From the NCBI RefSeq assembly GCF_041248615.1, contig NZ_CP158426.1: a DNA stretch of 64,000 nucleotides; one strand, given 5' to 3'. Origin of the DNA: Escherichia coli (lineage in GTDB: Bacteria; Pseudomonadota; Gammaproteobacteria; Enterobacterales; Enterobacteriaceae). Of this stretch, positions 45,949-60,890 are shown one piece after another; the first letter of the stretch is position 1; the number at the start of each line of letters is the position of its first letter. Position numbers and translations under genes: made by a program. The notes beneath the pieces are model-generated. The model ran no database searches. It was not told the origin of the DNA and was given only the letters and a program-made list of their open reading frames with translations.

Positions 45949-48900
45949 GTGGCGACATTACGTGAACTGATTATTAAAATCTCGGCAAATTCCCGGTCAT
46001 TCCAGTCAGAGATCTCCCGGGCTTCGCGTATGGGGCAGGATTACTACCGTACCATGCAGAACGGAGGCCGGCAGTCCGCTGCTGCATCCCGTGAAATGCG
46101 GCGTGCACTGGCAGAAGTGACGGATCAGATAAATACAGCTAAATCTTCGGCACTGAATATGGCGGGGGCATTTGCCGGAGCTTTTGCTACCGGTCATCTT
46201 ATTTCTCTCGCCGATGAGTGGAATTCAGTAAATGCCCGTCTGAAGCAGGCTTCACAGTCCAGTGATGATTTTCGGGTATCACAACGTGAATTAATGGCAA
46301 TCAGCCAGAGAACGGGAACGGCGTTTTCTGATAACGCCAGCCTTTTTGCCCGCTCTGCAGCTTCCATGCGGGAGTATGGCTACAGTTCTGAGGAGGTACT
46401 GAAAGTCACCGAGGCGATCTCCACGGGCCTGAAATTATCCGGTGCCAGTACAGCAGAAGCCAGTTCGGTGATCACGCAGTTCAGTCAGGCACTGGCGCAG
46501 GGAGTGCTGCGCGGTGAAGAATTTAACTCTGTGAATGAGAACGGCGATCGTGTTATTCGTGCGCTGGCTGCGGGAATGGGTGTTGCCCGTAAGGATCTGA
46601 AGGCCATGGCGGATAACGGAAAACTGACCGCCGATAAGGTTGTTCCTGCACTGATTAGTCAGCTTGGGGCGTTGCGTGATGAATATGCAGCAATGCCTGA
46701 TACTGTTTCATCCTCTGCAACCAAAGTTGAAAACGCCTTTATGGCCTGGGTTGGTGGTGCGAACGAGGCAAGCGGAGTGACAAAGACACTCACCGGGGTG
46801 TTGAATGGTGTTGCAGACAATATTGATACCGTGGCTGCTGCAGCTGGCGCACTGGTTGCCGTCGGGGTAGCCCGATATTTTGGCAATATGGCGTCGTCTG
46901 CTGGATCTGCAACTGCCGGATTAATTACTGCAGCCAGAAACGAAGTGGCTCTTGCTGAAGCGCAACTTCGGGGGACACAGATAGCAACCGCCAGGGCGCG
47001 TGCGGCGGTTTATCGTGCGCAACAGGCGGTTGTTGCTGCTCGCGGTACCGAAAGGCAGGCCGCAGCAGAAGCGAAGCTGACAGCTGCCCAGGCGTCACTT
47101 ACCCGTAATATTGCGGCCAGAACAGCGGCACAGACAACGCTGAATACTGTCACGTCAGTGGGGAGTCGTCTGTTAAGTGGTGCGCTGGGGTTGGTTGGTG
47201 GTGTGCCGGGACTAGTCATGCTGGGGGCGACGGCCTGGTACACGATGTATCAGAATCAGGAGCAGGCCAGAGAATCTGCACGCCAGTATGCCGCAACAAT
47301 CGACGAAATTCGCCAGAAAACGTCGGCAATGTCGCTTCCTGAAGCGTCAGATAATGAGGAAAAGACGCGGCAGGCACTTGATGAGCAAAACAGGTTAATT
47401 GACGAGCAGAAAAGTAAGATTAAATCCTTACAGGAAAAAATTGCTGGCTATCAGTATGTGCTGGCAAACCCGGGCTGGACAACCGATAACGGTTTTATGA
47501 TTAACCACATGACGTCGGTAAAAACTGTCACAGAAGGGCTTGCAGAAGCAACAAATCAACTGGCAGTTGAACAGTCCCGTCTCACACAAATGCAGGGCAA
47601 AGCGCAATCCATTCAGGATGTGCTTGCCGGGCTGGAGGAGCGACGGGTGGCGTTGATCCGTCAACAGGCCGCGGAACAAAACAAAGCGTATCAGTCCCTG
47701 TTGATCATGAATGGGCAGCATACCGAGTTTAATCGCCTTCTCGGGCTCGGTAATGAATTACTTCAGCAGCGACAGGGGCTGGTGAATGTACCGTTACGGC
47801 TACCACAGGCAACCCTGGATGATAAACAGCAGACCGCACTGAATAACAGCGAGCGCGAACTGGCTCTGTCCCGCCTGAAGGGGGAAGCCCGTGAGCGTGC
47901 CCGCCTGGGTTATGCTGCGGATGATCTCGGCTTTGTGGGAGAGGCGTATCAGACAGCCAGACAGAATTATATCAATAACTCACTGGATGCCTGGCGAAAT
48001 AACCAGGCAAATAAACCCAAAGCGCATAAAAAGACCGAAGCGGAAAAAACAGAAGATATTTATAAACGGCTGATTAAACAGCAAAAAGAACAAATAGCAC
48101 TGGCAGGGCAGAATACTGAACTGGCTAAGATGAAATATCAGGTCAGTCAGGGCGAATTATCAACCCTGTCAGAAGCGCAGAAAAAAACGCTTTTGCAGAA
48201 TGCAGCACTCATCGACCAGAAAAAGATTCGTGAGCAGCTTGCTGCGTATGAGAGCAGTCTGGCGGACAGTAATGCCAGTGCCCGGGCATCTGACGAAGCG
48301 CAGTTGCTGGGATATGGTGAAGGCTCACGGATGCGTGAACGACTCCAGGAAATGTGGAGTATCCGGCAGGCGTTTGAGCAGAAAAATAACGAGCTGCTGA
48401 GACAGTATCAGGCCGGAGAAATTGAAGAAGCCCTGTGGAAACAGGAGAAAGAACTGAATAAAAAATATCTGGAAGAGCGTCTCAGCGATCAGCAGGATTA
48501 TTATGCAAAGGCCGATGCTTTACGTAATAACTGGAATGCCGGACTCCAGGAGGGACTGACCAACTGGGCAGACAGTGCTACCGATTATGCTTCACAGGCG
48601 GCAGATGCTGTCGTTTCCACGATGGACGGGCTGGTATCAAATATTTCCGATGCACTGGCCGGGAATGTTGTGGACTGGAGGAACTGGGGGAGTTCAGTTC
48701 TCCGGGAAGTTTCAAAAATTCTGATGAATGCAGCCATTGTTAACGGACTGAAATCACTCTCCGGTGCCGGAGGGTGGCTTGGTACGGTCGGCGGATGGAT
48801 TTCGGGGGCAGTGGCAAACGCAAAAGGTGGTGTTTACACATCGGCAAATCTGAGTGCTTACAGTAACACTATTGTGGATACACCGACGTATTTTGCTTTT

Positions 48901-49176
48901 GCGAAAGGTGCCGGGTTGATGGGCGAGGCCGGGCCTGAAGCAATCATGCCACTGACACGGGCAGCGGACGGCTCTCTTGGGGTCAGGGCCATTGGAAATG
49001 TGAATGGTGGCGGTGGATTTGTTTATTCTCCCGTGTATCACATCAGCATTCAGAATCAAGGGAGCAATGGCGAGATAGATGCGCGCTCAGCCAGGGGACT
49101 GGTGGATCTGATCGACAGCAGGGTTGTGTCAATTATGCAGTCATCGCGTCGGGATGGAGGATTGTACAGTGCCTGA
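45949..49176 (+). CDS. H: Tail tape measure protein (lambda H-like)
   Basis: 1075-aa ORF, coiled-coil/Ala-Gln-rich, position after G/GT. Confidence 0.9.
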   Translation: MATLRELIIKISANSRSFQSEISRASRMGQDYYRTMQNGGRQSAAASREMRRALAEVTDQINTAKSSALNMAGAFAGAFATGHLISLADEWNSVNARLKQASQSSDDFRVSQRELMAISQRTGTAFSDNASLFARSAASMREYGYSSEEVLKVTEAISTGLKLSGASTAEASSVITQFSQALAQGVLRGEEFNSVNENGDRVIRALAAGMGVARKDLKAMADNGKLTADKVVPALISQLGALRDEYAAMPDTVSSSATKVENAFMAWVGGANEASGVTKTLTGVLNGVADNIDTVAAAAGALVAVGVARYFGNMASSAGSATAGLITAARNEVALAEAQLRGTQIATARARAAVYRAQQAVVAARGTERQAAAEAKLTAAQASLTRNIAARTAAQTTLNTVTSVGSRLLSGALGLVGGVPGLVMLGATAWYTMYQNQEQARESARQYAATIDEIRQKTSAMSLPEASDNEEKTRQALDEQNRLIDEQKSKIKSLQEKIAGYQYVLANPGWTTDNGFMINHMTSVKTVTEGLAEATNQLAVEQSRLTQMQGKAQSIQDVLAGLEERRVALIRQQAAEQNKAYQSLLIMNGQHTEFNRLLGLGNELLQQRQGLVNVPLRLPQATLDDKQQTALNNSERELALSRLKGEARERARLGYAADDLGFVGEAYQTARQNYINNSLDAWRNNQANKPKAHKKTEAEKTEDIYKRLIKQQKEQIALAGQNTELAKMKYQVSQGELSTLSEAQKKTLLQNAALIDQKKIREQLAAYESSLADSNASARASDEAQLLGYGEGSRMRERLQEMWSIRQAFEQKNNELLRQYQAGEIEEALWKQEKELNKKYLEERLSDQQDYYAKADALRNNWNAGLQEGLTNWADSATDYASQAADAVVSTMDGLVSNISDALAGNVVDWRNWGSSVLREVSKILMNAAIVNGLKSLSGAGGWLGTVGGWISGAVANAKGGVYTSANLSAYSNTIVDTPTYFAFAKGAGLMGEAGPEAIMPLTRAADGSLGVRAIGNVNGGGGFVYSPVYHISIQNQGSNGEIDARSARGLVDLIDSRVVSIMQSSRRDGGLYSA

Positions 49177-49510
49177 GCCTGAAGTTTTTAACTGGATCCC
49201 CCGTGAGGGGATGGAGACGACACGAAAGCCATCAGTTATTACGGTAAAGTTTGGTGACGGATATGAACAGCGACGGGCTGGTGGTCTGAATGCGGATCTG
49301 AAAACGTTTAAACCGGTATTTCGTGTCACAGATGAATATTCCCGTGCCGCGCTGGACAGTTTTTTATCCCGTCATGCCGGGATTCGTGCTTTTTTGTGGC
49401 GTCCGCCAAAACACAACAGGACTGTCCGGGTTGTCTGCAGGGAGTGGAGCATTTCGGATAATGCCATGTATACCGATTTTAACTGTACCTTTGAAGAGGT
49501 CACTCACTGA
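49154..49510 (+). CDS. M: Minor tail protein M
   Basis: VKFGDGYEQRRAGGLNADLKTFKPV and FLWRPP resemble lambda M; start among three in-frame Met uncertain. Confidence 0.8.
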   Translation: MEDCTVPEPEVFNWIPREGMETTRKPSVITVKFGDGYEQRRAGGLNADLKTFKPVFRVTDEYSRAALDSFLSRHAGIRAFLWRPPKHNRTVRVVCREWSISDNAMYTDFNCTFEEVTH

Positions 49511-50208
49511 TGCAGGATATACAGCAGGATACACTCAATGAGTGCACTAAAACGGAGCAATCCGCGCTGGTCGTGCTCTGGGAAATTGATCTGACAGAGG
49601 TCGGCGGAGATCGTTATTTCTTCTGTAATGAGCAGAACGAAAAAGGTGAACCAGTCACCTGGCAGGGGCGGCAGTATCAGGCTTATCCCATTCAGGGAAG
49701 CGGATTTGAGATGAACGGCAAAGGAGCCAGTGCAAGGCCAACGCTTAAAGTCTCTAACCTGTACGGCATGGTCACCGGGATGGCGGAAGATCTGCAGAGT
49801 CTGGTCGGCGGAACGGTGGTCCGGCGTAAGGTTTACGCCCGTTTTCTGGATGCGGTGAACTTCGTCAACGGAAACAGTGACGCCGATCCGGAGCAGGAGG
49901 TGATCAGCCGCTGGCGCATCGAACAGTGCAGCGAACTGAGCGCGGTGAGTGCCTCTTTTGTGCTGTCCACACCGACGGAAACGGATGGCGCTGTTTTTCC
50001 GGGGCGCATCATGCTGGCCAACACCTGCACCTGGATCTACCGCGGCGATGAGTGCGGTTATGATGGCCCGGCGGTCGCGGATGAATATGACCAGCCAACG
50101 TCCGATATCACGAAGGATAAGTGCAGCAAATGCCTGAGTGGTTGCAAGTTCCGCAATAATGTCGGCAATTTTGGCGGCTACCTTTCCATTAACAAACTTT
50201 CGCAGTAA
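49510..50208 (+). CDS. L: Minor tail protein L
   Basis: 232-aa ORF with C-terminal Cys cluster, lambda L-like. Confidence 0.9.
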   Translation: MQDIQQDTLNECTKTEQSALVVLWEIDLTEVGGDRYFFCNEQNEKGEPVTWQGRQYQAYPIQGSGFEMNGKGASARPTLKVSNLYGMVTGMAEDLQSLVGGTVVRRKVYARFLDAVNFVNGNSDADPEQEVISRWRIEQCSELSAVSASFVLSTPTETDGAVFPGRIMLANTCTWIYRGDECGYDGPAVADEYDQPTSDITKDKCSKCLSGCKFRNNVGNFGGYLSINKLSQ

Positions 50209-50212
50209 ACCC

Positions 50213-50956
50213 ATGACAGAGACAGAATCAGCGATTCTGGCGCACGCCCGGCGATGTGCGCCAGCGGAGTCGTGCGGCTTCGTGGTGAGAACGCCGGAGG
50301 GGGTCAGATATTTTCCCTGCGTGAATATCTCCGGTGAGCCGGAGGCGTATTTCCGGATGTCGCCGGAGGACTGGCTGCGTGCACAAATGCAGGGGGAGGT
50401 TGTGGCACTGGTCCACAGCCACCCCGGTGGTCTGCCCTGGCTGAGTGAGGCTGACAGGCGGCTGCAGGTGCAGAGTGATTTGCCGTGGTGGCTGGTCTGC
50501 CGGGGGGCGATTCACAAGTTCCGCTGTGTGCCACATCTTACCGGGCGGCGCTTTGAGCACGGGGTGACGGACTGTTACACGCTGTTCCGGGATGCATACC
50601 ATCTGGCGGAAATTGAGATGCCGGATTTTTATCGCGGGGATGACTGGTGGCGTAACGGCCAGAATCTCTATCTTGAAAATATGGAGGCGACTGGTTTTTA
50701 CCGTGTCGCACTGACAGAGGCGCAGCCGGGCGATGTGCTGCTGTGCTGTTTTGGTTCATCGGTGCCGAATCATGCCGCCATTTACTGCGGCGACGGCGAG
50801 CTGCTGCACCATATTCCTGAACAACTGAGCAAACGAGAGAGGTATACCGACAAATGGCAGCGACGCACACACTCCCTCTGGCGTCACCGGGCATGGCACG
50901 CATCTGCCTTTACGGGAATTTACAACGATTTGGCCGCCGCATCGACCTTCGTGTGA
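50213..50956 (+). CDS. K: Tail assembly protein K (MPN/JAB plus NlpC/P60 domains)
   Basis: Start MTETESAILAHARRC; HSHP motif; lambda K-like. Confidence 0.85.
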   Translation: MTETESAILAHARRCAPAESCGFVVRTPEGVRYFPCVNISGEPEAYFRMSPEDWLRAQMQGEVVALVHSHPGGLPWLSEADRRLQVQSDLPWWLVCRGAIHKFRCVPHLTGRRFEHGVTDCYTLFRDAYHLAEIEMPDFYRGDDWWRNGQNLYLENMEATGFYRVALTEAQPGDVLLCCFGSSVPNHAAIYCGDGELLHHIPEQLSKRERYTDKWQRRTHSLWRHRAWHASAFTGIYNDLAAASTFV

Positions 50957-51501
50957 AAACGGGGGCCGAAGCCATCCGGGCGCTGGCCATGCAGATCCCG
51001 GCGTTTCGTCAGAAACTGAGTGACGGCTGGTATCAGGTACGGATTGCCGGGCGTGATGCAGGTGAAACCGAATTGTCTGCCCGTCTTAATGAGCCGCTGG
51101 CAAATGGTGCCGTGATCCACATCGTTCCGCGTCTGGAGGGGGCCAAAAGTGGCGGTGTGTTTCAGGCGGTGCTGGGTGCGGCGCTGATTGCGGTGGCATG
51201 GTGGAACCCTGTAGGCTGGCTGGGGGCCGCGGCTGTATCGGGTATGTATGCAGCAGGGGCCAGTATGATCCTGGGTGGTGTGGCGCAGATGCTGGCACCG
51301 AAAGCCCGGACGCCCACGGCAGCCAGTACAGATAACGGCAAACAGAACACGTATTTCTCGTCACTGGATAACATGGTTGCCCAGGGCAATGTTCTGCCCG
51401 TTCTGTACGGTGAAATGCGTGTGGGGTCGCGGGTGGTATCTCAGGAGATCAGCACGGCAGATGAAGGTGATGGTGGTCAGGTTGTGGTGATTGGTCGCTG
51501 A
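50854..51501 (+). CDS. I: Tail assembly protein I
   Basis: MAATHTLPLASPGMARICLYGNLQRFGRRIDLRVKTGAEAIRALA... close to lambda I as I recall it. Confidence 0.9.
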   Translation: MAATHTLPLASPGMARICLYGNLQRFGRRIDLRVKTGAEAIRALAMQIPAFRQKLSDGWYQVRIAGRDAGETELSARLNEPLANGAVIHIVPRLEGAKSGGVFQAVLGAALIAVAWWNPVGWLGAAAVSGMYAAGASMILGGVAQMLAPKARTPTAASTDNGKQNTYFSSLDNMVAQGNVLPVLYGEMRVGSRVVSQEISTADEGDGGQVVVIGR

Positions 51502-51520
51502 TGAAAAATGTTTTATGTGA

Positions 51521-51547
51521 AACCGCCTGCGGGCGGTTTTGTCGTTT
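51521..51547 (+). terminator. Hairpin plus T-run upstream of J
   Basis: ACCGCC-TGCG-GGCGGT then TTTTGTCGTTT. Confidence 0.4.
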
Positions 51548-51561
51548 ATGGAGCGTGAGGA

Positions 51562-54500
51562 ATGGGTAAAGGCAGCAGTAAGGGGCATACCCCGCGCGAA
51601 GCGAAGGACAACCTGAAGTCCACGCAGTTGCTGAGTGTGATCGATGCCATCAGCGAAGGGCCGATTGACGGTCCGGTGGATGGATTAAAAAGCGTGCTGC
51701 TGAACAGTACGCCAGTGCTGGACAGTGAGGGGAATACCAATATCTCCGGTGTCACGGTGGTGTTCCGGGCAGGTGAGCAGGAGCAGACACCGCCGGAGGG
51801 ATTTGAATCCTCCGGCTCCGAGACGGTGCTGGGTACGGAAGTGAAATACGACACGCCGATCACCCGGACCATCACGTCGGCAAACATTGACCGACTGCGT
51901 TTTACCTTCGGCGTGCAGGCACTGGTGGAAACCACCTCAAAGGGGGACAGGAATCCGTCGGAAGTCCGCCTGCTGGTTCAGATACAACGTAACGGTGGCT
52001 GGGTGACGGAAAAAGACATCACCATTAAAGGCAAAACCACCTCACAGTATCTGGCCTCGGTGGTGGTGGATAACCTGCCGCCGCGCCCGTTTAATATCCG
52101 GATGCGCAGGATGACGCCGGACAGCACCACAGACCAGCTGCAGAACAAAACGCTCTGGTCGTCATACACCGAAATTATCGATGTGAAACAGTGCTACCCG
52201 AACACGGCACTGGTCGGCGTGCAGGTGGATTCGGAGCAGTTCGGCAGCCAGCAGGTGAGCCGTAATTATCATCTGCGCGGGCGTATTCTGCAGGTGCCGT
52301 CGAATTATAATCCGCAGACGCGGCAATACAGCGGTATCTGGGACGGAACGTTTAAACCGGCATACAGCAACAACATGGCATGGTGTCTGTGGGATATGCT
52401 GACCCACCCGCGCTACGGCATGGGGAAACGTCTTGGTGCGGCGGATGTGGACAAATGGGCGCTGTATGTCATCGGCCAGTATTGCGACCAGTCGGTGCCG
52501 GACGGTTTTGGCGGCACGGAGCCGCGCATCACCTGTAACGCTTACCTGACCACACAGCGTAAGGCGTGGGATGTGCTCAGTGATTTCTGCTCGGCGATGC
52601 GCTGTATGCCGGTATGGAACGGGCAGACGCTGACGTTCGTGCAGGACCGACCGTCGGATAAGGTGTGGACCTATAACCGCAGTAATGTGGTGATGCCGGA
52701 TGATGGCGCGCCGTTCCGCTACAGTTTCAGCGCCCTGAAGGACCGCCATAATGCCGTTGAGGTGAACTGGATTGACCCGGATAACGGCTGGGAAACGGCA
52801 ACAGAGCTTGTGGAGGACACGCAGGCCATTGCCCGTTACGGTCGTAATGTCACGAAGATGGATGCCTTTGGCTGTACCAGTCGGGGGCAGGCGCACCGCG
52901 CCGGGCTGTGGCTGATTAAAACGGAACTGCTGGAAACGCAGACCGTGGACTTCAGCGTGGGTGCGGAAGGGCTTCGCCATGTACCGGGGGATGTCATTGA
53001 AATCTGCGATGATGACTATGCGGGTATCAGCACCGGCGGGCGCGTGCTGGCGGTGAACAGCCAGACCCGGACGCTGACGCTCGACCGTGAAATCACGCTG
53101 CCATCCTCCGGTATCACGCTGATAAGCCTGGTTGACGGAAGTGGCAATCCGGTCAGCGTGGAGGTTCAGTCCGTCACCGACGGCGTGAAGGTAAAAGTGA
53201 GCCGTGTTCCTGACGGTGTTGCTGAATACAGCGTATGGGGGCTGAAGCTGCCGACGCTGCGCCAGCGACTGTTCCGCTGCGTGAGTATCCGTGAGAACGA
53301 CGACGGCACGTATGCCATCACTGCCGTGCAGCATGTACCGGAGAAAGAAGCCATCGTGGATAACGGGGCGTACTTTGACGGCGACCAGAGCGGAACGGTG
53401 AACGGTGTCACGCCGCCCGCGGTGCAGCACCTGACTGCAGAAGTCACCGCAGACAGCGGGGAATACCAGGTGCTGGCGCGCTGGGACACGCCGAAGGTGG
53501 TGAAGGGGGTGAGCTTTATGCTTCGCCTGACCGTGGCAGCGGATGACGGCAGTGAGCGGCTGGTCAGCACGGCCAGGACGACGGAAACCACATACCGCTT
53601 CAGGCAACTGGCGCTGGGGCGTTACACGCTGACGGTCCGGGCGGTAAATGCGTGGGGACAGCAGGGCGATCCGGCATCGGTATCGTTCCGGATTGCCGCA
53701 CCGGCAGCGCCGTCGCGGATTGAGCTGACGCCGGGCTATTTTCAGATAACTGCCACGCCGCATCTTGCGGTTTATGATCCGACGGTACAGTTTGAGTTCT
53801 GGTTCTCGGAAAAGCGGATTGCGGATATCAGGCAGGTTGAAGCCAGCGCGCGTTATCTTGGTACGGCGCTGTACTGGATAGCCGCCAGTATCAATATCAA
53901 ACCGGGCCATGATTATTATTTTTACATTCGCAGTGTGAACACCGTTGGCAAATCGGCATTCGTGGAGGCTGTTGGCCAGCCGAGTGATGATGCATCCGGC
54001 TATCTGGATTTTTTCAAAGGCGAGATAGGGAAAACCCATCTGGCTCAGGAGCTGTGGACGCAGATTGATAACGGTCAGCTTGCGCCTGACCTGGCTGAAA
54101 TCAGGACGTCCATTACGGATGTCAGCAATGAAGTCACGCAGACCGTCAATAAGAAACTGGAAGACCAGAGTGCGGCAATTCAGCAGATACAGAAGGTTCA
54201 GGTTGATACAAATAATAACCTGAACAGCATGTGGGCTGTGAAGCTGCAGCAGATGCAGGACGGACGCCTTTATATCGCGGGTATTGGTGCCGGTATTGAG
54301 AATACCCCTGACGGCATGCAGAGTCAGGTGCTGCTGGCGGCGGACAGGATTGCGATGGTTAATCCTGCGAATGGCAACACAAAGCCGATGTTTGTTGGTC
54401 AGGGCGATCAGATATTCATGAACGAAGTGTTCCTGAAATATCTGACGGCTCCCACCATTACCAGCGGCGGTAATCCTCCGGCATTTTCCCTGACACCGGA

Positions 54501-55041
54501 CGGGCGGCTGACGGCGAAAAATGCCGATATCAGCGGTAACGTGAATGCGAACTCCGGGACGCTCAACAACGTCACGATTAACGAGAACTGCCGGGTTCTG
54601 GGAAAACTGTCCGCGAACCAGATTGAAGGCGATCTCGTTAAAACAGTGGGCAAAGCTTTCCCCCGGGACTCCCGTGCACCGGAACGCTGGCCATCAGGGA
54701 CCATTACCGTCAGGATTTATGACGATCAGCCGTTTGACCGGCAGATTGTTATTCCGGCGGTGGCATTCAGCGGCGCTAAGCATGAGAGAGAGCATACTGA
54801 TATTTACTCCTCATGCCGTCTGATAGTGCGGAAAAACGGTGCTGAAATTTATAACCGTACCGCGCTGGATAATACGCTGATTTACAGTGGCGTTATTGAT
54901 ATGCCTGCCGGTCACGGTCACATGACGCTGGAGTTTTCGGTGTCAGCATGGCTGGTAAATGACTGGTATCCCACAGCAAGTATCAGCGATTTGCTGGTTG
55001 TGGTGATGAAGAAAGCCACCGCAGGCATCAGTATCAGCTGA
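51562..55041 (+). CDS. J: Host specificity protein J (central tail fibre)
   Basis: 1159-aa ORF, lambda J-like position and length. Confidence 0.9.
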
Positions 55042-55060
55042 ATTTTATAACCCCAATACG

Positions 55061-55087
55061 GGCGTCAGAAATGACGCCTTTTTTATT
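55061..55087 (+). terminator. Intrinsic terminator after J
   Basis: GGCGTCA-GAAA-TGACGCC then TTTTTT. Confidence 0.55.
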
Positions 55088-55108
55088 GCAGAAAAGCGAG
55101 AGGTAATT

Positions 55109-55708
55109 ATGCGTAAATTATGTGCTGTTATTCTGTCCGCAGTAGTCTGGCTGGTTGCCGCTGGTACGCCAGCGAGCGCAGCAGAGCATCAGTCCACACT
55201 AAGCGCCGGGTATCTTCAGACCCATACTGATATGCCAGGCAGTGATGACCTGAAGGGCATTAACGTGAAATACCGTTATGAATTTACGGACACGCTGGGG
55301 CTGGTGACGTCATTCAGTTATGCCAATGCCAAAGATGAGCAAAAAACGCATTACAGCGATACCCGCTGGCATGAAGATTCAGTGCGTAACCGCTGGTTCA
55401 GCATGATGGCGGGGCCATCTGTACGCGTGAATGAATGGTTCAGTGCTTATGCGATGGCAGGTGTGGCTTACAGCCGTGTTTCGACGTTCTCCGGGGATTA
55501 TCTCCGCGTAACTGACAACAAGGGGAAAACGCACGATGTGCTGACCGGAAGTGATGACGGTCGCCACAGCAACACGTCTCTGGCGTGGGGAGCTGGCGTG
55601 CAGTTTAACCCGACCGAATCCGTGGCCATTGATATTGCTTATGAAGGCTCCGGCAGTGGTGACTGGCGCACTGACGGTTTCATCGTGGGTGTCGGTTATA
55701 AATTCTGA
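55109..55708 (+). CDS. lom: Lom/Ail-family outer-membrane protein
   Basis: 199-aa ORF with signal peptide and 8-strand beta-barrel pattern, C-terminal GVGYKF. Confidence 0.85.
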   Translation: MRKLCAVILSAVVWLVAAGTPASAAEHQSTLSAGYLQTHTDMPGSDDLKGINVKYRYEFTDTLGLVTSFSYANAKDEQKTHYSDTRWHEDSVRNRWFSMMAGPSVRVNEWFSAYAMAGVAYSRVSTFSGDYLRVTDNKGKTHDVLTGSDDGRHSNTSLAWGAGVQFNPTESVAIDIAYEGSGSGDWRTDGFIVGVGYKF

Positions 55709-55734
55709 TTAGCCAGGTAACACAGTGTTATGAC

Positions 55735-55761
55735 AGCCCGCCGGTTCAGGCGGGCTTTTTT
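55735..55761 (+). terminator. Intrinsic terminator after lom
   Basis: AGCCCGCC-GGTTCA-GGCGGGCT then TTTTTT. Confidence 0.55.
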
Positions 55762-55766
55762 GTGGA

Positions 55767-58151
55767 GTGGATATGGCAGCAGTAAAAATCTCAGGTGTGC
55801 TGAAAGATGGTGCGGGAAAACCAATACAGAACTGCACTATTCAACTGAAGGCAAAGCGTAACAGCACCACGGTACTGGTGAACACGGTGGCTTCTGAAAA
55901 TCCGGATGAAGCCGGACGTTACAGCATGGATGTTGAGTATGGCCAGTACAGCGTCACCCTGCTGGTTGAAGGTTTTCCGCCTTCACATGCCGGGACCATT
56001 ACCGTCTATGAAGGTTCCAGACCAGGTACGCTGAATGATTTTCTCGGTGCCATGACGGAAGATGATGTCATGCCGGAGGCATTGCGTCGTTTTGAGGCAA
56101 TGGTGGAAGAAGCGGCACGCAACGCCGAAGCCGCCTCTCAGAGCGCAGCGGCGGCAAAGAAATCCGAAACTGCAGCGGCATCATCGAAGAACGCGGCGAA
56201 AACCTCAGAAACGAATGCAGCTAACAGCGCACAGGCGGCAGCGACCTCACAGACTGCATCGGCAAACTCCGCGACAGCAGCCAAAAAATCAGAAACCAAC
56301 GCGAAAAACAGCGAGACAGCCGCAAAGACGAGCGAAACCAACGCAAAGTCCAGCCAGACGGCAGCGAAGACCAGCGAAACGAATGCCAAAGCCAGTGAAA
56401 CTGCGGCAAAAAACAGCCAGGTTGCAGCAGCCCAAAGCGAGAGCGCGGCAGCCGGTTCTGCGACTTCAGCAGCCGGATCAGCAACTGCTGCGGCTAACAG
56501 CCAGAAAGCTGCGAAGACGAGTGAAACTAACGCAAAGTCCAGCCAGACGGCAGCGAAGACCAGCGAAACGAATGCCAAAGCCAGTGAAACTGCGGCGAAA
56601 AACAGTCAGGATGCTGCAGCCCAAAGCGAGAGTGCCGCAGCTGGTTCTGCAAGTGCGGCGGCTTCTTCTGCCACTGCATCAGCCAACAGTCAAAAAGCTG
56701 CAAAAACCAGTGAAACCAACGCAAAGGCGAGCGAGACTGCGGCGGCTAACTCGGCGAAAGCATCCGCTGCAAGCCAGACGGCTGCAAAAGCAAGTGAAGA
56801 CGCAGCCAGAGAGTATGCAAGCCAGGCTGCGGAGCCGTATAAACAAGTTTTGCAGCCGCTTCCCGATGTGTGGATACCGTTTAACGATTCACTGGATATG
56901 ATTACGGGCTTTTCGCCATCATATAAAAAGATTGTTATTGGCGACGACGAAATAACGATGCCTGGTGACAAGGTTGTTAAGTTTAAACGCGCATCGAAAG
57001 CAACCTATATTAATAAATCTGGTGTACTGACAGAGGCTGCCATTGACGAGCCGCGATTTGAACGTGATGGCCTGCTTATTGAGGGGCAAAGAACTAATCT
57101 TCTGCTTAATTCAACAAATCCATCTAAATGGAATAAGTCAGGCAATCTGGAACTCACAGAAATATCCACGGATTCTTTTAATTTTACTTATGGGAGATTT
57201 ACTGTAAAAGATACTCTTATTGATCAGACAAGTGCGATTAATATCGTAACGGTTTCTGGCAGTAAAGGATTTGATGTCACAGGTGATGAAAAATATGTGA
57301 CCATTTCATGCCGTGTCAGAAGTGATGTTGAAAATATAAGGTGTCGTTTAAGATTTGAACATCATGATGGTTCTACTTACACTTTTTTGGGAGATGCTTA
57401 CCTCAATTTATCAACACTTGTAATTGATAAGACTGGTGGTGCAGCAAATCGTATTATTGCAAAGGCTGTAAAAGATGAGGCTACTGGTTGGATTTTCTAT
57501 CAGGCTACAATTAATGCACTAGATACAGAGAGCATGATTGGTGCGATGGTTCAATATGCTCCAGTAAAAGGTTCAGGCACAGCATCTGGAGACTATCTGG
57601 ATATCGCAACTCCACAAGTGGAAGGTGGATCAAGTGCTTCGTCATTTATTGTAACTGATATAATTGCAAGCACTCGCGCAAGCGATATGGTGACAGTCCC
57701 AATCAAGAATAACCTTTATAATCTTCCTTTTACAGTTCTTTGTGAGGTACATAAGAACTGGTATAAAACGCCAAATGCAGCACCGCGTGTTTTTGATACC
57801 GGCGGTCATCAAACCGGAGCGGCTATTATTCTTGGCTTCGGTCGTTCAACAGATTACGACGGATTTCCTTATTGCGATATAGGTTTGGCTAACAGACGGG
57901 TAAACGAAAACGCATCGCTTGAAAAAATGGTTATGGGGATGCGTGTAAAGTCAGATCAGTCTACGTGCTCAGTAAGTAACGGGCGTATATCCAGCGAAAA
58001 GAAAGCCACATGGTCCTATATTCAGAACACCGCAATTATCCGTATTGGAGGCCAGACTACAGCCGGGTTGCGTCATTTATTTGGTCATGTCAGGAATTTC
58101 AGAATATGGCACAAGGCATTGACTGATGCTCAGGTGGGGGAGTCAATCTAA
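55767..58151 (+). CDS. stf: Side tail fibre (Stf-like) with Ala-rich repeat region
   Basis: N-terminus MAAVKISGVLKDGAGKPIQNCTIQLKAKRNSTTVLVNTV close to lambda Stf; variable C-terminal half. Confidence 0.8.
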   Translation: MDMAAVKISGVLKDGAGKPIQNCTIQLKAKRNSTTVLVNTVASENPDEAGRYSMDVEYGQYSVTLLVEGFPPSHAGTITVYEGSRPGTLNDFLGAMTEDDVMPEALRRFEAMVEEAARNAEAASQSAAAAKKSETAAASSKNAAKTSETNAANSAQAAATSQTASANSATAAKKSETNAKNSETAAKTSETNAKSSQTAAKTSETNAKASETAAKNSQVAAAQSESAAAGSATSAAGSATAAANSQKAAKTSETNAKSSQTAAKTSETNAKASETAAKNSQDAAAQSESAAAGSASAAASSATASANSQKAAKTSETNAKASETAAANSAKASAASQTAAKASEDAAREYASQAAEPYKQVLQPLPDVWIPFNDSLDMITGFSPSYKKIVIGDDEITMPGDKVVKFKRASKATYINKSGVLTEAAIDEPRFERDGLLIEGQRTNLLLNSTNPSKWNKSGNLELTEISTDSFNFTYGRFTVKDTLIDQTSAINIVTVSGSKGFDVTGDEKYVTISCRVRSDVENIRCRLRFEHHDGSTYTFLGDAYLNLSTLVIDKTGGAANRIIAKAVKDEATGWIFYQATINALDTESMIGAMVQYAPVKGSGTASGDYLDIATPQVEGGSSASSFIVTDIIASTRASDMVTVPIKNNLYNLPFTVLCEVHKNWYKTPNAAPRVFDTGGHQTGAAIILGFGRSTDYDGFPYCDIGLANRRVNENASLEKMVMGMRVKSDQSTCSVSNGRISSEKKATWSYIQNTAIIRIGGQTTAGLRHLFGHVRNFRIWHKALTDAQVGESI
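56322..56700 (+). repeat. Tandem duplication (~2 x 189 bp) inside stf
   Basis: Near-identical units starting at 56322 and 56511, encoding KTSETNAKSSQTAAKTSETNAKASETAAKNSQ.AAAQSESAAAGSA. Confidence 0.6.
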
Positions 58152-58432
58152 TGAAAGATTTAACACTCAAATTTGCCGACAGGGCCGACTTTTCGGCCTT
58201 TATGGAGAGTGCCGGCTATTATGATGACGAGTCGATGCAGGATGATATTCTTATTGACGTGATAGGTAACGTGTACAAAGAAACCGGAGAACTTACCGAA
58301 GATGGCGAGCCGGTATGTGTTAAGGAAGACGGATATTTTGTAAACGTGCGCATCATTAATGATGCAAAAAAATCGTCAATATTCGATGAATACGTGGTTG
58401 CTGTTGAGCATCAACTTCGTGGCTGGATGTGA
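58151..58432 (+). CDS. Hypothetical protein (93 aa), coupled to stf
   Basis: ATG overlaps stf stop; acidic protein; unlike known Tfa chaperones to my recollection. Confidence 0.4.
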   Translation: MKDLTLKFADRADFSAFMESAGYYDDESMQDDILIDVIGNVYKETGELTEDGEPVCVKEDGYFVNVRIINDAKKSSIFDEYVVAVEHQLRGWM

Positions 58433-58441
58433 GGAAGAAAA

Positions 58442-59482
58442 ATGGCTACATCGACAGTAATTCCTGAAGACATCAAAACGCTAAAATCCGACGTTAGCAA
58501 ATTAAAAAACGATCAAGGAAGCTACGCAACAAAATCATATGTAGACAATAAAACAACATGGAATAGTTATTGCAATGTAATCTATGATCAAAAGACATTG
58601 CCGACCACTGGAACTATATTTAGCGGTAAGATTCACTTGTCAAATAAGACAGGAGAAACCGAAAACGCTTATAGTGAGATGTACACTAGAAAAAATATTG
58701 ACGGTACAAAAGATACAATGACAAGGATTGTCACACACAATGGAACAAAAGGTATCTTTTGGGATTTTAGCGATCTTTACGGTGGAACATTAATTTTTCC
58801 AGGCAGTGATGGTTACCTTAAGATGGGGAACTGTCTCATGTCGTATGGTGTGCGGGGAAGTAACGCGCTTATTAAGTTTGACTGCACAGACACATTACAA
58901 ATCAAATATGCCAATCATGGGTCAACCATGACAATCAACACACAGGGAACCGCTCATTCTGGCGCTACTACTAGTTTGTGGGGTAACTCTACCCGTCCGG
59001 TTGTATATGAAGTTGGTGCTGATGGTGGCGCTTATATGTTCTATGCGCAGAAAAATACCGATAACACCTATATGTTAAGCGTTAATGGTGCATGTCATGC
59101 CACCGCATTTAACCAGCATTCCGACCGGGATCTGAAAGACAACATTCAGGTGATCGATAATGCAACCGACCGCATCCGTAAAATGAACGGCTATACATAC
59201 ACGCTTAAAGAAAACGGTATGCCCTATGCTGGTGTCATTGCACAGGAAGCTCTGGAAGCAATCCCAGAAGTTGTAGGTTCCGCAATGAAATATCAGGACG
59301 GTGCAAGCGGATCGGAAGGTGAAGAAGGTGAACGTTATTACACAGTAGATTATTCTGGTGTTACTGGCTTGCTTGTTCAGGTAGCCAGAGAGTCAGACGA
59401 CAGAATAACAGCACTGGAAGAAGAAAACGCAGAATTAAGACAAAGATTATCTGCAATTGAGGCGGCGCTTGCGTCTAAATAA
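58442..59482 (+). CDS. Tail fibre/tailspike-like protein with C-terminal intramolecular chaperone (S74-like) domain
   Basis: C-terminal DRDLKDNIQVIDNATDRIRKMNGYTYTLKENGMPYAGVIAQEALEAIPEVV...RITALEEENAELRQRL. Confidence 0.65.
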   Translation: MATSTVIPEDIKTLKSDVSKLKNDQGSYATKSYVDNKTTWNSYCNVIYDQKTLPTTGTIFSGKIHLSNKTGETENAYSEMYTRKNIDGTKDTMTRIVTHNGTKGIFWDFSDLYGGTLIFPGSDGYLKMGNCLMSYGVRGSNALIKFDCTDTLQIKYANHGSTMTINTQGTAHSGATTSLWGNSTRPVVYEVGADGGAYMFYAQKNTDNTYMLSVNGACHATAFNQHSDRDLKDNIQVIDNATDRIRKMNGYTYTLKENGMPYAGVIAQEALEAIPEVVGSAMKYQDGASGSEGEEGERYYTVDYSGVTGLLVQVARESDDRITALEEENAELRQRLSAIEAALASK

Positions 59483-59488
59483 TATCAA

Positions 59489-59511
59489 GGGGCCGAGCGC
59501 CCCGTTTTATT
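59489..59511 (+). terminator. Intrinsic terminator after tail fibre gene
   Basis: GGGGC-CGAGC-GCCCC then GTTTTATT. Confidence 0.45.
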
Positions 59512-59812
59512 GGGTAGGATGAAAATGGATATAACACCTTTCCTTCATGCGCTTTGTGCTGTGGCTGCGCAGCTACTGATTGGTCTTTTTACCGGGAACT
59601 GGGCTTACGGGGCGATAGCCGGTTGTACGTTCTTCATTGCGCGTGAACACACCCAGGCAGAATATCGCTGGATTGAAATGTTTGGGCATGGCAAGAGGAT
59701 TAACATGCCGTGGTGGGGCGGTTTTGATCCGCGCGTGTGGGATGTGGCAAGCCTGATGGATTTTGCTGTGCCGGTGGTGGCGTGTCTGCTGATCTGGATG
59801 TTGATCCGTTAA
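59510..59812 (+). CDS. Small membrane protein at prophage right end
   Basis: 100-aa ORF with 2-3 hydrophobic segments; last ORF before attR. Confidence 0.4.
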   Translation: MGRMKMDITPFLHALCAVAAQLLIGLFTGNWAYGAIAGCTFFIAREHTQAEYRWIEMFGHGKRINMPWWGGFDPRVWDVASLMDFAVPVVACLLIWMLIR

Positions 59813-60160
59813 ATATAAAAAGTAAAAAGCCGCAGTAACTTGTCATGATAGGATACTGCGGCTGGCTGGTTAACTTTCGATAGTGCGAGTATTGAATGAT
59901 TTCCAGCCGTTACCGATTTTATATAACTGCAGTGGAATTATTCAACACACAGGCAAAACGGAATAAGCTGAGAAAAAAGCGTGCTTACCCAATCTGGGGT
60001 AAATCACGTCTGAATGACACCTGAAAACAGGTGGTGGCCTCAAGAAGGCTTGGAATATTCTTCTTTAATGTTATGTAATTTATTGATTTTTCGTGTACGA
60101 TTTTAAGACATTTATTCCAAGAAAAGTTTTTAACTCTTTGATTTTTCGACTCTGTATCAT

Positions 60161-60222
60161 CGGTCTCGAAAACCGGAGTAGGGGCAACTCTACCGGGGGT
60201 TCAAATCCCCCTCTCTCCGCCA
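60161..60222 (+). repeat. attR (displaced 3' fragment of tRNA-Ser)
   Basis: 62 bp matching attL/tRNA 3' half with two substitutions (GAGTAGGGG...CTCTACC versus GAGTGGGGG...CTCCACC). Confidence 0.8.
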
Positions 60223-60776
60223 CTTTATCAATGACTTATCTCCCGATTTCCCGCCTTGCTTTTCCTAAACAGAACAATCGTAGAATATTCTTGAAGGGTT
60301 AGATCGTCACTGTTTTCTGTTCGATACTGTGACATTCAGCACTTGATTCGCTATGGATCTGACAGGAAGCTTTCGAGCGAAAATCTGCAGTTATTCAGTC
60401 GTTTTCTTATCGGTCACCATTATTCTTTTAGACATTGATCCTACAAAGCTGCCGCAAAGTTGGTGGTGGGAACTGAAGTTGCGTAGAGAAGGGGGCAATA
60501 ATTGAGCAAAAAAAGGAACGCGGCCGTCAGATTAAAGCCGCGGGACAAAGTCCATAATTTCCAAGAGTTGTTGAATTTCCCAGCTTTTTTGAAAGCCTTT
60601 GTATCATACTAACAAGTAAAAAAGGTTTAAATACCAAAATTAACCTATATTTCTGGTTAGCTTTACCATGACAGATGACTTGCTCCTGGAGACATTGGCG
60701 CAGCCAGTCTGTATTGGTGAGTTGTGTATTTATTGTTCGCCGTTTTCTCAGTTTTTTCTACAGACATAATAAAAAA

Positions 60777-60806
60777 GACACGTCTCAAGCATGAGCGTGT
60801 CTGAGT
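60777..60806 (-). terminator. Putative zinT terminator
   Basis: Imperfect hairpin GACACGTCTC...GAGCGTGTC followed on the minus strand by a T-run. Confidence 0.4.
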
Positions 60807-60890
60807 TTGTCTTATTTATTTGTCTTGGTAAATTATTGTCGTTACTACCAGGCACTATTCTGTTAAATAATTGAAGTCAGCGCAAAAAAA

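Follow-up and report, generated by a model that had tools for sequence, protein, structure and literature searches.

An old pair of nine-heptad blocks in the heptad-array shaft of a lambda-type side tail fibre of Escherichia coli

Introduction

The proximal coiled coil (PCoil) of the Escherichia coli prophage fibres EPclA and EPclB lies directly after the PfN domain (PF08400) and is rich in Ala and Ser and almost free of large hydrophobic residues; its heptad pattern is loose, and small residues occupy the core positions (Ghosh et al., 2012, PMC3368898). By CD, SEC-MALLS and rotary-shadowing EM, PfN-PCoil fragments proved to be trimeric and alpha-helical in that study, whose authors also noted that one PCoil differs in length from another by a multiple of seven residues. 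That the length of this domain varies in heptad quanta has been known since that publication in 2012.

In the Ur-lambda side tail fibre (gpStf), a collar and a linker are followed by a long proximal coiled coil, residues 102-393 of the trimer, in a full-length model that combined cryo-EM/cryo-ET data with AlphaFold3 (PMC12617516). The fibre of the T5-like phage DT57C consists of LtfA and LtfB, with LtfB attached via LtfA, and a three-helix coiled coil begins at residue T40 of LtfA (PMC10713586). The N-terminus of LtfA-type fibres attaches via the LtfC collar, with inserting strands, and lambda Stf ends in a gp37-like distal part that binds OmpC and depends on Tfa. T4 fibritin (gpwac) is also a trimeric coiled-coil fibre, and its length and segments vary among related phages (work cited within PMC10713586 and PMC3797505).

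We analysed an in-frame repeat in a side tail fibre gene (stf) that lies in a stretch of 64,000 nucleotides of E. coli DNA, called the window here. An initial annotation had described this repeat as a recent duplication in the fibre shaft that could alter fibre length, reach or host range.

Results

The side tail fibre gene and its neighbours

The identification of stf as a genuine side tail fibre gene was borne out. The product matched PF08400 over aa 5-134 (E = 1e-66) and, over aa 3-95, the 94-aa Stf chain of the Ur-lambda tail tip (PDB 9e7m, E = 8e-49), which was also the top Foldseek match and to which the collar is ~88% identical over these residues. The gene directly follows J, whose product has seven J domains, and lom, in the order of a lambdoid tail cluster and at the position that stf occupies in Ur-lambda (Table 1). 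The phrog_1419 'tail protein' profile matched Stf from end to end (1-793/793), and the identical gene of strain 201609 is annotated as 'prophage tail fiber N-terminal domain-containing protein' (WP_077251782.1).

Downstream, the phrog_1361 gene and a second fibre gene form a cassette shared with the LtfA-type fibres of T5-like phages; the phrog_1361 gene is likewise found behind the homologous fibre gene of phage IdasGreatGrand and of the Tequintavirus vB_Si_CECAV_FGS017. The second fibre protein contains a Peptidase_S74 domain (PF13884, aa 227-278, E = 6e-14) and matched phrog_4563, tail fiber (E = 3e-208).

The distal region of Stf matched NCBIfam GTA_spike_fiber over aa 437-638 and was modelled by AF2 with a pLDDT of ~90. 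Foldseek matches included the Pa193/E217 tail fibre, pentraxin, CBM40, LNS domains and BoNT Hc, and this region is probably the receptor (carbohydrate) binding part. A gp37-like tip with the Tfa assembly chaperone, as in lambda, was not found in this gene or after it: the distal part is predicted to consist of tandem ConA-like lectin domains, and the phrog_1361 gene and the S74-chaperone fibre gene follow in place of tfa. The rods of EPclA and EPclB, in contrast, are followed by collagen repeats and a PfC domain (PMC3368898). Stf of the window is thus a lambda-type side tail fibre (PF08400 family) by its N-terminal family only, and its distal module differs. That N-terminus, a StfN domain, also sets it apart from fibres held by the LtfC collar.

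Table 1. Features of the side tail fibre locus (positions in the window).
Feature	Position	Strand	Basis or remark
J	51562-55041		1159 aa
Lom	55109-55708		
Side tail fibre gene stf, 792 aa	55773-58151	+	ORF list; mechanical ORF start is GTG at 55767
StfN collar domain, aa 1-95, attaches fibre to tail tip	55773-56057	+	PF08400, 9e7m
Predicted coiled-coil shaft, unbroken heptad array, aa 108 to ~352	56094-56828	+	Consensus [K/A]-x-S-[E/Q/A]-[T]-[A/N]-A
Repeat unit A	56322-56510	+	63 aa = 9 heptads
Longest A/B-identical run, 68 nt	56340-56407 (partner 56529-56596)	+	
Repeat unit B	56511-56699	+	63 aa = 9 heptads
Partial third copy, 45 nt, ~2 heptads like the unit start	56700-56744	+	Tandem Repeats Finder array runs to 56744
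Conserved junction PLPDVWIPFNDSL, rod end and module-exchange boundary	56856-56894	+	Motif in most related proteins
Distal region, aa ~437-792	57081-58148	+	Predicted tandem concanavalin-A/LamG-like jelly rolls
93-aa gene, phrog_1361	58151-58432	+	E = 2e-46; accompanies this fibre type without exception
Second fibre protein, 346 aa, C-terminal intramolecular chaperone domain	58442-59482	+	PF13884, phrog_4563

The heptad array of the shaft

Counted over aa 108-359 (nt 56094-56849), the shaft comprises 36 heptads in one register, the last of them degenerate and running into the junction at nt 56856. Ser occupies position 3 and Ala position 7 in 32 of the 36 heptads each, so that Ser and Ala hold 3/4-spaced heptad positions, and the periodicity of Ala peaks at 7.00. 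The Ala/Ser/Thr-rich character noted initially was confirmed, with 36% Ala, 18% Ser and 11% Thr (65% together), and only 4 of 248 residues are large hydrophobic ones. In the AF2 monomer model most of the shaft was helical, but its pLDDT stayed under 50; the model is thus hardly informative for the rod and was of use for the distal domain only.

Because the 36 heptads are unbroken and the homologues in Ur-lambda Stf, EPclA/EPclB and DT57C LtfA are coiled coils, we infer that the shaft is the trimeric alpha-helical proximal coiled coil of Stf; in position it corresponds both to residues 102-393 of lambda Stf and to the PCoil of EPclA/EPclB. A weak heptad-motif match from a PDB sequence search, to an unmodelled 'N-terminal triple helical bundle' in the Klebsiella phage depolymerase DpK2 (7LZJ, residues 130-172), is supportive only.

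The array of the window is much longer (~250 aa, against ~110 aa for the PCoil of EPclA/EPclB) and more regular, and we found no mention of a nine-heptad higher-order repeat in the available sections of PMC3368898. It also differs from the Ur-lambda shaft in sequence and length, and the related lambda-type alleles examined have no 189-bp repeat. T5-like shafts have heptads of the KTSETNAK type in common with it, but their internal repeats are their own, arranged differently and without the A and B units. T4 fibritin, with hydrophobic cores and loop-separated segments, has no sequence relationship to the unbroken Ala/Ser array seen here.

Repeat units A and B

Tandem Repeats Finder reported an array of period 189 at 56307-56744 (2.3 copies, 84% matches, 0 indels, score 617). 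The two full units, 2 x 189 bp or 2 x 63 aa, are in frame with stf ((56322-55773) mod 3 = 0), as the initial annotation had stated; its start coordinate was correct and its end, 56700, was one base too long. In line with a partial third copy after unit B, two 21-nt windows, with their starts at 56504 and 56525, each gave a lag-189 identity of 0.81, which reaches position 56545. In a literature search we found no published description of this specific 63-aa unit.

Units A and B are the same at 58 of 63 amino acids (92%), the five changes including V/D, and at 162 of 189 nucleotides (85.7%). The description 'near-identical' therefore fits the protein and not the DNA, in which 27 positions differ; these touch 22 codons, 17 of them synonymously. 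The mismatches are unevenly spread, with 17 in the last 49 nt and 10 in the first 140 nt (Fisher p = 1e-5). Chance likeness arising from the low-complexity heptad background was considered and ruled out by a lag scan, as identity was 85.7% at lag 189, 42-58% at other multiples of 21 and ~32% out of register. Antisense ORFs overlap the repeat at 56138-56578, 56221-56484 and 56527-56724, and were taken as by-products of the Ala-codon-rich sense strand.

Age and spread of the two-unit form

The divergence of A from B was high at synonymous sites (dS = 0.72) and low at nonsynonymous ones (dN = 0.044), and the resulting dN/dS of 0.06 indicates strong purifying selection on both units. Between orthologous units of other prophages the median dS was 0.12 for A and 0.15 for B. 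By part, the first 46 codons gave a dS of 0.37 between A and B, and in the last 17 codons dS had reached saturation.

We compared 41 two-unit loci, which include the window and strain 201609 with its identical gene. Identity between A and B within a locus was 85.2%, whereas the medians were 94.7% among A units and 95.2% among B units. Average-linkage clustering placed all 41 B units and 40 of the 41 A units in separate groups. Nearest neighbours were A with A and B with B even inside the well-conserved first 140 nt, where A-B identity (91.4%) was lower than A-A (95.0%) and B-B identity (95.7%), and each of the two tail types, A and B, is conserved among alleles. Concerted evolution as the chief cause of the likeness of A and B was rejected, since A-B identity over the first 140 nt was 92.1% within loci and 91.7% between loci (permutation p = 0.01); it is occasional, as in loci L036 and L021, and not dominant. 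In L036 the A unit has been homogenised and is 94.7% identical to its own B unit.

The two-unit layout was found in ~968 of 5,426 complete E. coli genomes (~18%), counting those in which window positions 56050-56950 were covered colinearly over at least 80%, a level that a single-copy allele, reaching only 79%, would miss; this census was built on coverage thresholds and sampled rows and not on parsing every gene. The isolated phages 2G7b, HannyBb, Tritos, PhiR63_1 and ev207 are colinear across the repeat, and two units are present in 108 of the 120 closest protein clusters. The two-unit form is the commonest allele of this fibre family, and the A/B repeat is ordinary: it is widespread and conserved, and the fibre gene that contains it is common and annotated. 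In genomes that match stf at all, the number of matching places was 2 at the median and 13 at most. When a synthetic A-B-B query was run against the 5,426 genomes, the 30 best rows held two-unit loci only, with a span of 901 nt, and no three-unit allele.

Length alleles

As the initial annotation had anticipated, the number of units varies among related prophages, and the variation is always in whole heptads. Some alleles have a single unit, some have none, and others differ by further multiples of seven residues. Taking the PLPDVWIPFNDSL junction as anchor, differences from the modal spacing of 258 residues were -105, -63, -56, -28, -14 and -7 aa, a list confined to alleles whose difference is a multiple of 7, as other length classes also exist. 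The largest of these other classes (245) was seen directly to be explained by a different junction sequence, and the same cause is assumed for the remaining 6 proteins in 5 length classes. At the DNA level the span differences were -21, -84, -189 and -315 nt. A single distal-module cluster occurred on rods that are 105 residues (~15.5 nm) apart.

Rarer arrangements were also found. In the L040 class the second unit ends in an A-type tail, and in P0048 the units are of 63 and 49 aa. The single-copy allele of phage IdasGreatGrand carries A-type markers at its 5' end, where two (positions 2 and 17) are informative, and 14 of 14 B-type markers at its 3' end, with the switch across the 68-nt run. 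This is what a deletion by crossover between A and B predicts. Together with the 68-nt run common to A and B and the homogenised A unit of L036, it points to recombination as the likely mechanism, with the 68-nt run as a likely substrate. The same pattern could also be ancestral, in which case the 5' changes would have occurred in B and those at the 3' end in A.

Discussion

Origin of the two blocks

The A/B pair is an old feature. We consider it highly probable that the shaft is a heptad-array rod of the PCoil kind in which an old unequal-recombination event produced the nine-heptad blocks A and B, since kept by purifying selection. The rod is encoded by successive 21-bp units that each specify one heptad, and between these, unequal homologous recombination or slippage in register would add or remove whole-heptad blocks. 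Because changes come in such blocks, the products would stay in frame and in the register of the coiled coil. A single event long before the divergence of the present alleles would have given A and B, and the same process would account for the rarer one-block, no-block and other heptad-multiple alleles. Each block would add ~63 x 0.148 nm = ~9.3 nm to a rod of roughly 37 nm, and a longer rod would place the distal module, the probable receptor-binding part, at a greater distance from the tail tip.

The initial annotation had called the duplication recent, which would make the units young copies from ongoing repeat expansion in this lineage. The 92% identity of the protein units and the identical 68-nt run are in line with such an origin, and L036 indicates that recent homogenisation or re-duplication can happen. 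Recent origin was nevertheless rejected, and is very improbable here, because the dS of A and B, 0.72, exceeds the 0.12-0.15 seen for orthologous units, nucleotide identity is only 85.7%, the markers that tell A from B are common to 40 of the 41 two-unit loci, and the layout occurs in ~18% of complete genomes; the best matches to the A-B-B query add no three-unit allele. It had also been suggested that the second unit might be an assembly artefact and the true gene have one unit. Repeats can indeed be mis-assembled, but nothing in the data pointed that way, and this reading merits practically no credence: E. coli SMS-3-5 carries the 901-nt stretch with 100% identity, the phage isolates and hundreds of complete genomes that were assembled independently are colinear with it, and the units differ at 27 positions, with no identical run longer than 68 nt. 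A run of this length is shorter than an ordinary sequencing read.

A tentative alternative, less probable than an old event followed by divergence but deserving some weight, is that two stf alleles from different prophages, which had diverged beforehand, gave rise to the array by unequal crossover, so that much of the A/B difference, especially in the two-heptad tails, predates the event. The clustering of mismatches in the last 49 nt and the saturated dS of the last 17 codons fit this, as do the several stf-matching places per genome and the tails combined otherwise in the L040 class and P0048; given how the mismatches crowd the last 49 nt, the A tail may have been acquired from another allele and not by divergence after a simple duplication. 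No donor allele with only an A-type tail was identified, however, and the lower A-B than A-A or B-B identity in the first 140 nt makes the event old under either origin. It is quite improbable that the units are not interchangeable spacers and that each presents a specific surface of its own, such as one on which the 346-aa or the 93-aa protein could dock. Strong purifying selection on both units, the conservation of each tail type and the three-gene cassette shared with the T5-like lateral fibre gene speak for it; LtfB of DT57C attaches via LtfA (PMC10713586). Against it stand the functional one-unit phage IdasGreatGrand, which has the same cassette, and alleles that have neither unit but belong to the distal-module cluster of the window; the T5-like homologue combines this cassette with another shaft sequence, and docking is thus more likely in the shared distal half.

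Rod length, reach and exchange of the distal module

An effect of an extra unit on reach, which the initial annotation had proposed, is plausible on structural grounds. Host specificity is more likely set by the lectin-like distal module, which is exchanged independently of shaft length. A bolder idea, which we regard as unlikely, is that the alleles with 0, 1 and 2 blocks are selected length quanta that set the reach of a possibly branched fibre to the depth of the host O-antigen or capsule, or else that the A-type and B-type tails are docking surfaces of the rod. The repeat has little significance alone, as the length behaviour of such rods is already published, but no-block, one-block and two-block alleles on otherwise similar fibres form a natural set for relating rod length to adsorption through O-antigen or capsule.

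The PLPDVWIPFNDSL junction is a swap point of distal modules between temperate lambdoid and virulent T5-like phages, and is relevant to the engineering of fibre chimeras. From this motif onwards (query 1085-2360), the lateral tail fibre (LTF) gene of the T5-like phage vB_Si_CECAV_FGS017, a Salmonella Tequintavirus, is 92.7% identical in nucleotide sequence, and the N-terminal 40 aa of the Tequintavirus homologue are unrelated.

The nine-heptad repeat in the coiled-coil rod of the side tail fibre is real, in-frame, old and widespread. The stf gene lies directly 3′ of lom and the J tip-attachment gene. Its product has a PF08400 domain ('prophage tail fibre N-terminal'; E = 1e-66), residues 1-95 align with the Ur-lambda Stf chain in the tail-tip structure 9e7m (E = 8e-49), and the phrog_1419 profile covers it end to end (1-793/793 positions); the label 'side tail fibre gene' in the initial annotation is therefore correct. 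An identical, annotated stf gene is found in E. coli strain 201609, to which the window is 99.86% identical over the prophage tail region. The prophage/chromosome junction, however, spans ~221 nt in the window and ~995 nt, including yodB, in 201609 (L001:12905-13899), and the window must therefore come from a different strain.

Features of the stf region (window positions)
Feature	Coordinates	Length	Remarks
Prophage tail region	47767-60669		compared with strain 201609
stf	55773-58151	792 aa	ORF from ATG
Period-189 array	56307-56744		Tandem Repeats Finder
Unit A	56322-56510	189 bp	register of the initial annotation
Longest A/B identical run	56340-56407	68 nt
Unit B	56511-56699	189 bp	register of the initial annotation
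Partial third copy	56700-56744	45 nt
Conserved motif at end of rod	56856-56894		PLPDVWIPFNDSL junction
Distal region	57081-58148		aa 437-638 named GTA_spike_fiber
Cassette shared with Tequintavirus	58151-59482		phrog_1361 gene (93 aa), then second fibre gene
Second fibre protein	58442-59482	346 aa	C-terminal Peptidase_S74 intramolecular chaperone domain, aa 227-278
Prophage/chromosome junction	60670-60890	~221 nt

An in-frame tandem repeat of 189 bp

Tandem Repeats Finder reported a period-189 array of 2.3 copies with 84% matches and no indels (score 617). Units A and B are alike at 162/189 nucleotides and 58/63 residues, with V/D among the five replacements, and the repeat keeps the reading frame of the enclosing ORF, bearing out the tandem in-frame duplication proposed initially, although its end had been placed one base too far. 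A 21/42-bp periodicity is also present in this region. A lag scan gave 85.7% identity at 189, 42-58% at other multiples of 21 and ~32% out of register. Since identity at lag 189 far exceeds that at other in-register lags, the repeat is real and stands far above the low-complexity background.

The repeat lies in a shaft of 36 heptads that run in one unbroken register from residue 108, with Ser at position 3 and Ala at position 7 in 32/36 heptads each. The intervals between these fixed small residues are 4 and 3, like those of coiled-coil core positions, and the Ala periodicity peaks at exactly 7.00. Ala, Ser and Thr make up 65% of the shaft, and large hydrophobic residues only 4/248. Most of the shaft was helical, at low confidence, in an AF2 monomer model, and the heptad motif also occurs within the unmodelled N-terminal triple helical bundle of the depolymerase DpK2. 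One unit of 63 residues is exactly nine heptads and, at the standard coiled-coil rise of ~0.148 nm per residue, would lengthen a ~37-nm rod by about 9.3 nm, which lends structural support to the earlier suggestion that unit number alters fibre length.

In Ur-lambda, Stf is a trimeric fibre whose residues 102-393 have been termed the 'proximal coiled-coil domain'; they are located within the virion, in a full-length model that merges cryo-EM/cryo-ET data with AlphaFold3 predictions (PMC12617516). For related E. coli prophage fibres, CD, SEC-MALLS and rotary-shadowing EM show that PfN-PCoil fragments form alpha-helical trimers, and the PCoil region measured 16 nm, in agreement with ~0.148 nm per residue (PMC3368898). 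LtfA of phage DT57C forms a three-helix coiled coil starting at residue 40 (PMC10713586). From this homology, we infer that the stf shaft is a trimeric coiled coil.

This shaft region is the PCoil domain of Ghosh et al. (2012), who demonstrated a trimeric alpha-helical rod and observed length differences between PCoil domains in multiples of seven (PMC3368898). Although a literature search found no description of this nine-heptad repeat, nor was any mention found in the available portions of PMC12617516, PMC3368898 and PMC10713586, the repeat is one instance of this published length behaviour, in an annotated gene and in known phages.

The two-unit repeat is old and widespread

Among 5,426 complete E. 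coli genomes, 968 have a colinear match over at least 80% of window positions 56050-56950, among them UTI89 and SMS-3-5, the latter 100% identical; a single-unit allele would reach only 79%. Where a genome matched stf at all, the number of matching places had a median of 2 and a maximum of 13. Phage isolates also align colinearly through the repeat (2G7b, HannyBb, Tritos, PhiR63_1 and ev207), and two units are present in 108 of the 120 closest protein clusters.

The duplication had been described as recent, a view contradicted by this spread, by synonymous divergence and by the grouping of units across loci. The units differ at 27 nucleotides, with synonymous change in 17 of the 22 affected codons (dS = 0.72, dN = 0.044, dN/dS = 0.06, Nei-Gojobori). 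Median dS between the window's units and the orthologous units of other prophages was 0.12 (A) and 0.15 (B). Across 41 two-unit loci (IMG/VR loci, strain 201609 and the window), median identity was 85.2% for A-B within a locus, and 94.7% (A-A) and 95.2% (B-B) between loci. On clustering, all 41 B units separated from 40 of the 41 A units, and this separation was also seen in the well-conserved first 140 nt. The duplication is therefore older than the diversification of present alleles, whatever its origin. An assembly artefact is likewise excluded by the A/B divergence, the grouping across the 41 loci, the recurrence of the layout in many genomes, phages and loci, and the shortness of the longest identical run (68 nt).

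In a single locus (L036:2998-5376, IMGVR_UViG_2802429226_000012) the A unit falls among the B units, with an A-B identity of 94.7%. Gene conversion within the array or re-duplication is the likely cause, and this locus shows that homogenisation of units does occur occasionally.

Copy number and shaft length vary

Unit number differs among related prophages. One-unit alleles were found in phage IdasGreatGrand and in protein clusters P0052-P0057 and P0110. The best 60 matches to a single-unit query among E. coli genomes comprised 56 two-unit, 3 single-copy and 1 intermediate rows; two of the single-copy rows (H180, H181) share record length and coordinates and are perhaps one assembly, leaving two or three genomes. 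Loci L051-L061 carry neither unit and have a shaft 105 residues shorter, and cluster P0048 has units of 63 and 49 residues. Further shaft changes were of -7, -28 and -56 residues, and DNA spans differed by -21, -84 and -315 nt; all these are multiples of seven residues. Some length classes differ by non-multiples of seven: the largest (245) was seen directly to have a different junction sequence, which is assumed to be the cause in the remaining 6 proteins (5 length classes). When a synthetic A-B-B query was run, its best matches included no three-unit allele. The stf ORFs of loci L007, L027 and L062 (393, 392 and 241 aa) stop within or soon after the coiled-coil region, resembling the frameshifted stf of laboratory lambda.

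The single unit of IdasGreatGrand is A-type at its 5′ diagnostic positions and B-type in its 3′ tail (14/14 positions). This pattern would be expected if A and B had recombined by unequal crossover, inside the shared stretch that includes the 68-nt run, to leave a single-unit allele; alternatively, it may represent the ancestral state. The A/B differences themselves are clustered: the last 49 nt hold 17 of them, the first 140 nt 10 (p = 1e-5). An unequal crossover of alleles that had already diverged may thus have given rise to the array, as an alternative to a duplication whose copies then diverged evenly.

The distal module and its T5-like relatives

Residues ~437-792 of the stf product are predicted with high confidence to form tandem concanavalin-A/LamG-like jelly rolls, with structural matches to Pseudomonas phage tail fibres, pentraxin, CBM40 and toxin receptor-binding domains, which suggests carbohydrate binding. 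NCBIfam names part of this region 'phage head spike fiber domain', a misleading label in a tail fibre. The two-unit rod is paired with at least eight distal-region clusters (below ~60% identity), and one distal cluster is carried by both the long and the 105-residue-shorter rod. Such exchange independent of rod length makes the distal module the most likely seat of specificity; the rod would then serve as a chassis that varies in length. A putative effect of the repeat on host range or reach, as initially suggested, is plausible.

From the PLPDVWIPFNDSL junction onwards, the distal half of stf is 92.7% identical in nucleotides to the lateral tail fibre (LTF) gene of a Tequintavirus, a virulent T5-like phage of Salmonella (110 kb; L082:2959-7328). 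The cassette that follows is common to both. These similarities point to a recent exchange of modules between temperate lambdoid and T5-like phages, and hint that the prophage's side fibre could have branches, like the DT57C fibre made of LtfA and LtfB. Lambda's tfa is absent downstream of stf. The T5-like LTF shaft (L082:2959-5301, aa ~40-360) has the same KTSETNAK-type heptads and repeats of its own, with three AAAAKVSETNAK... blocks, and higher-order heptad repeats are thus a general feature of such rods.
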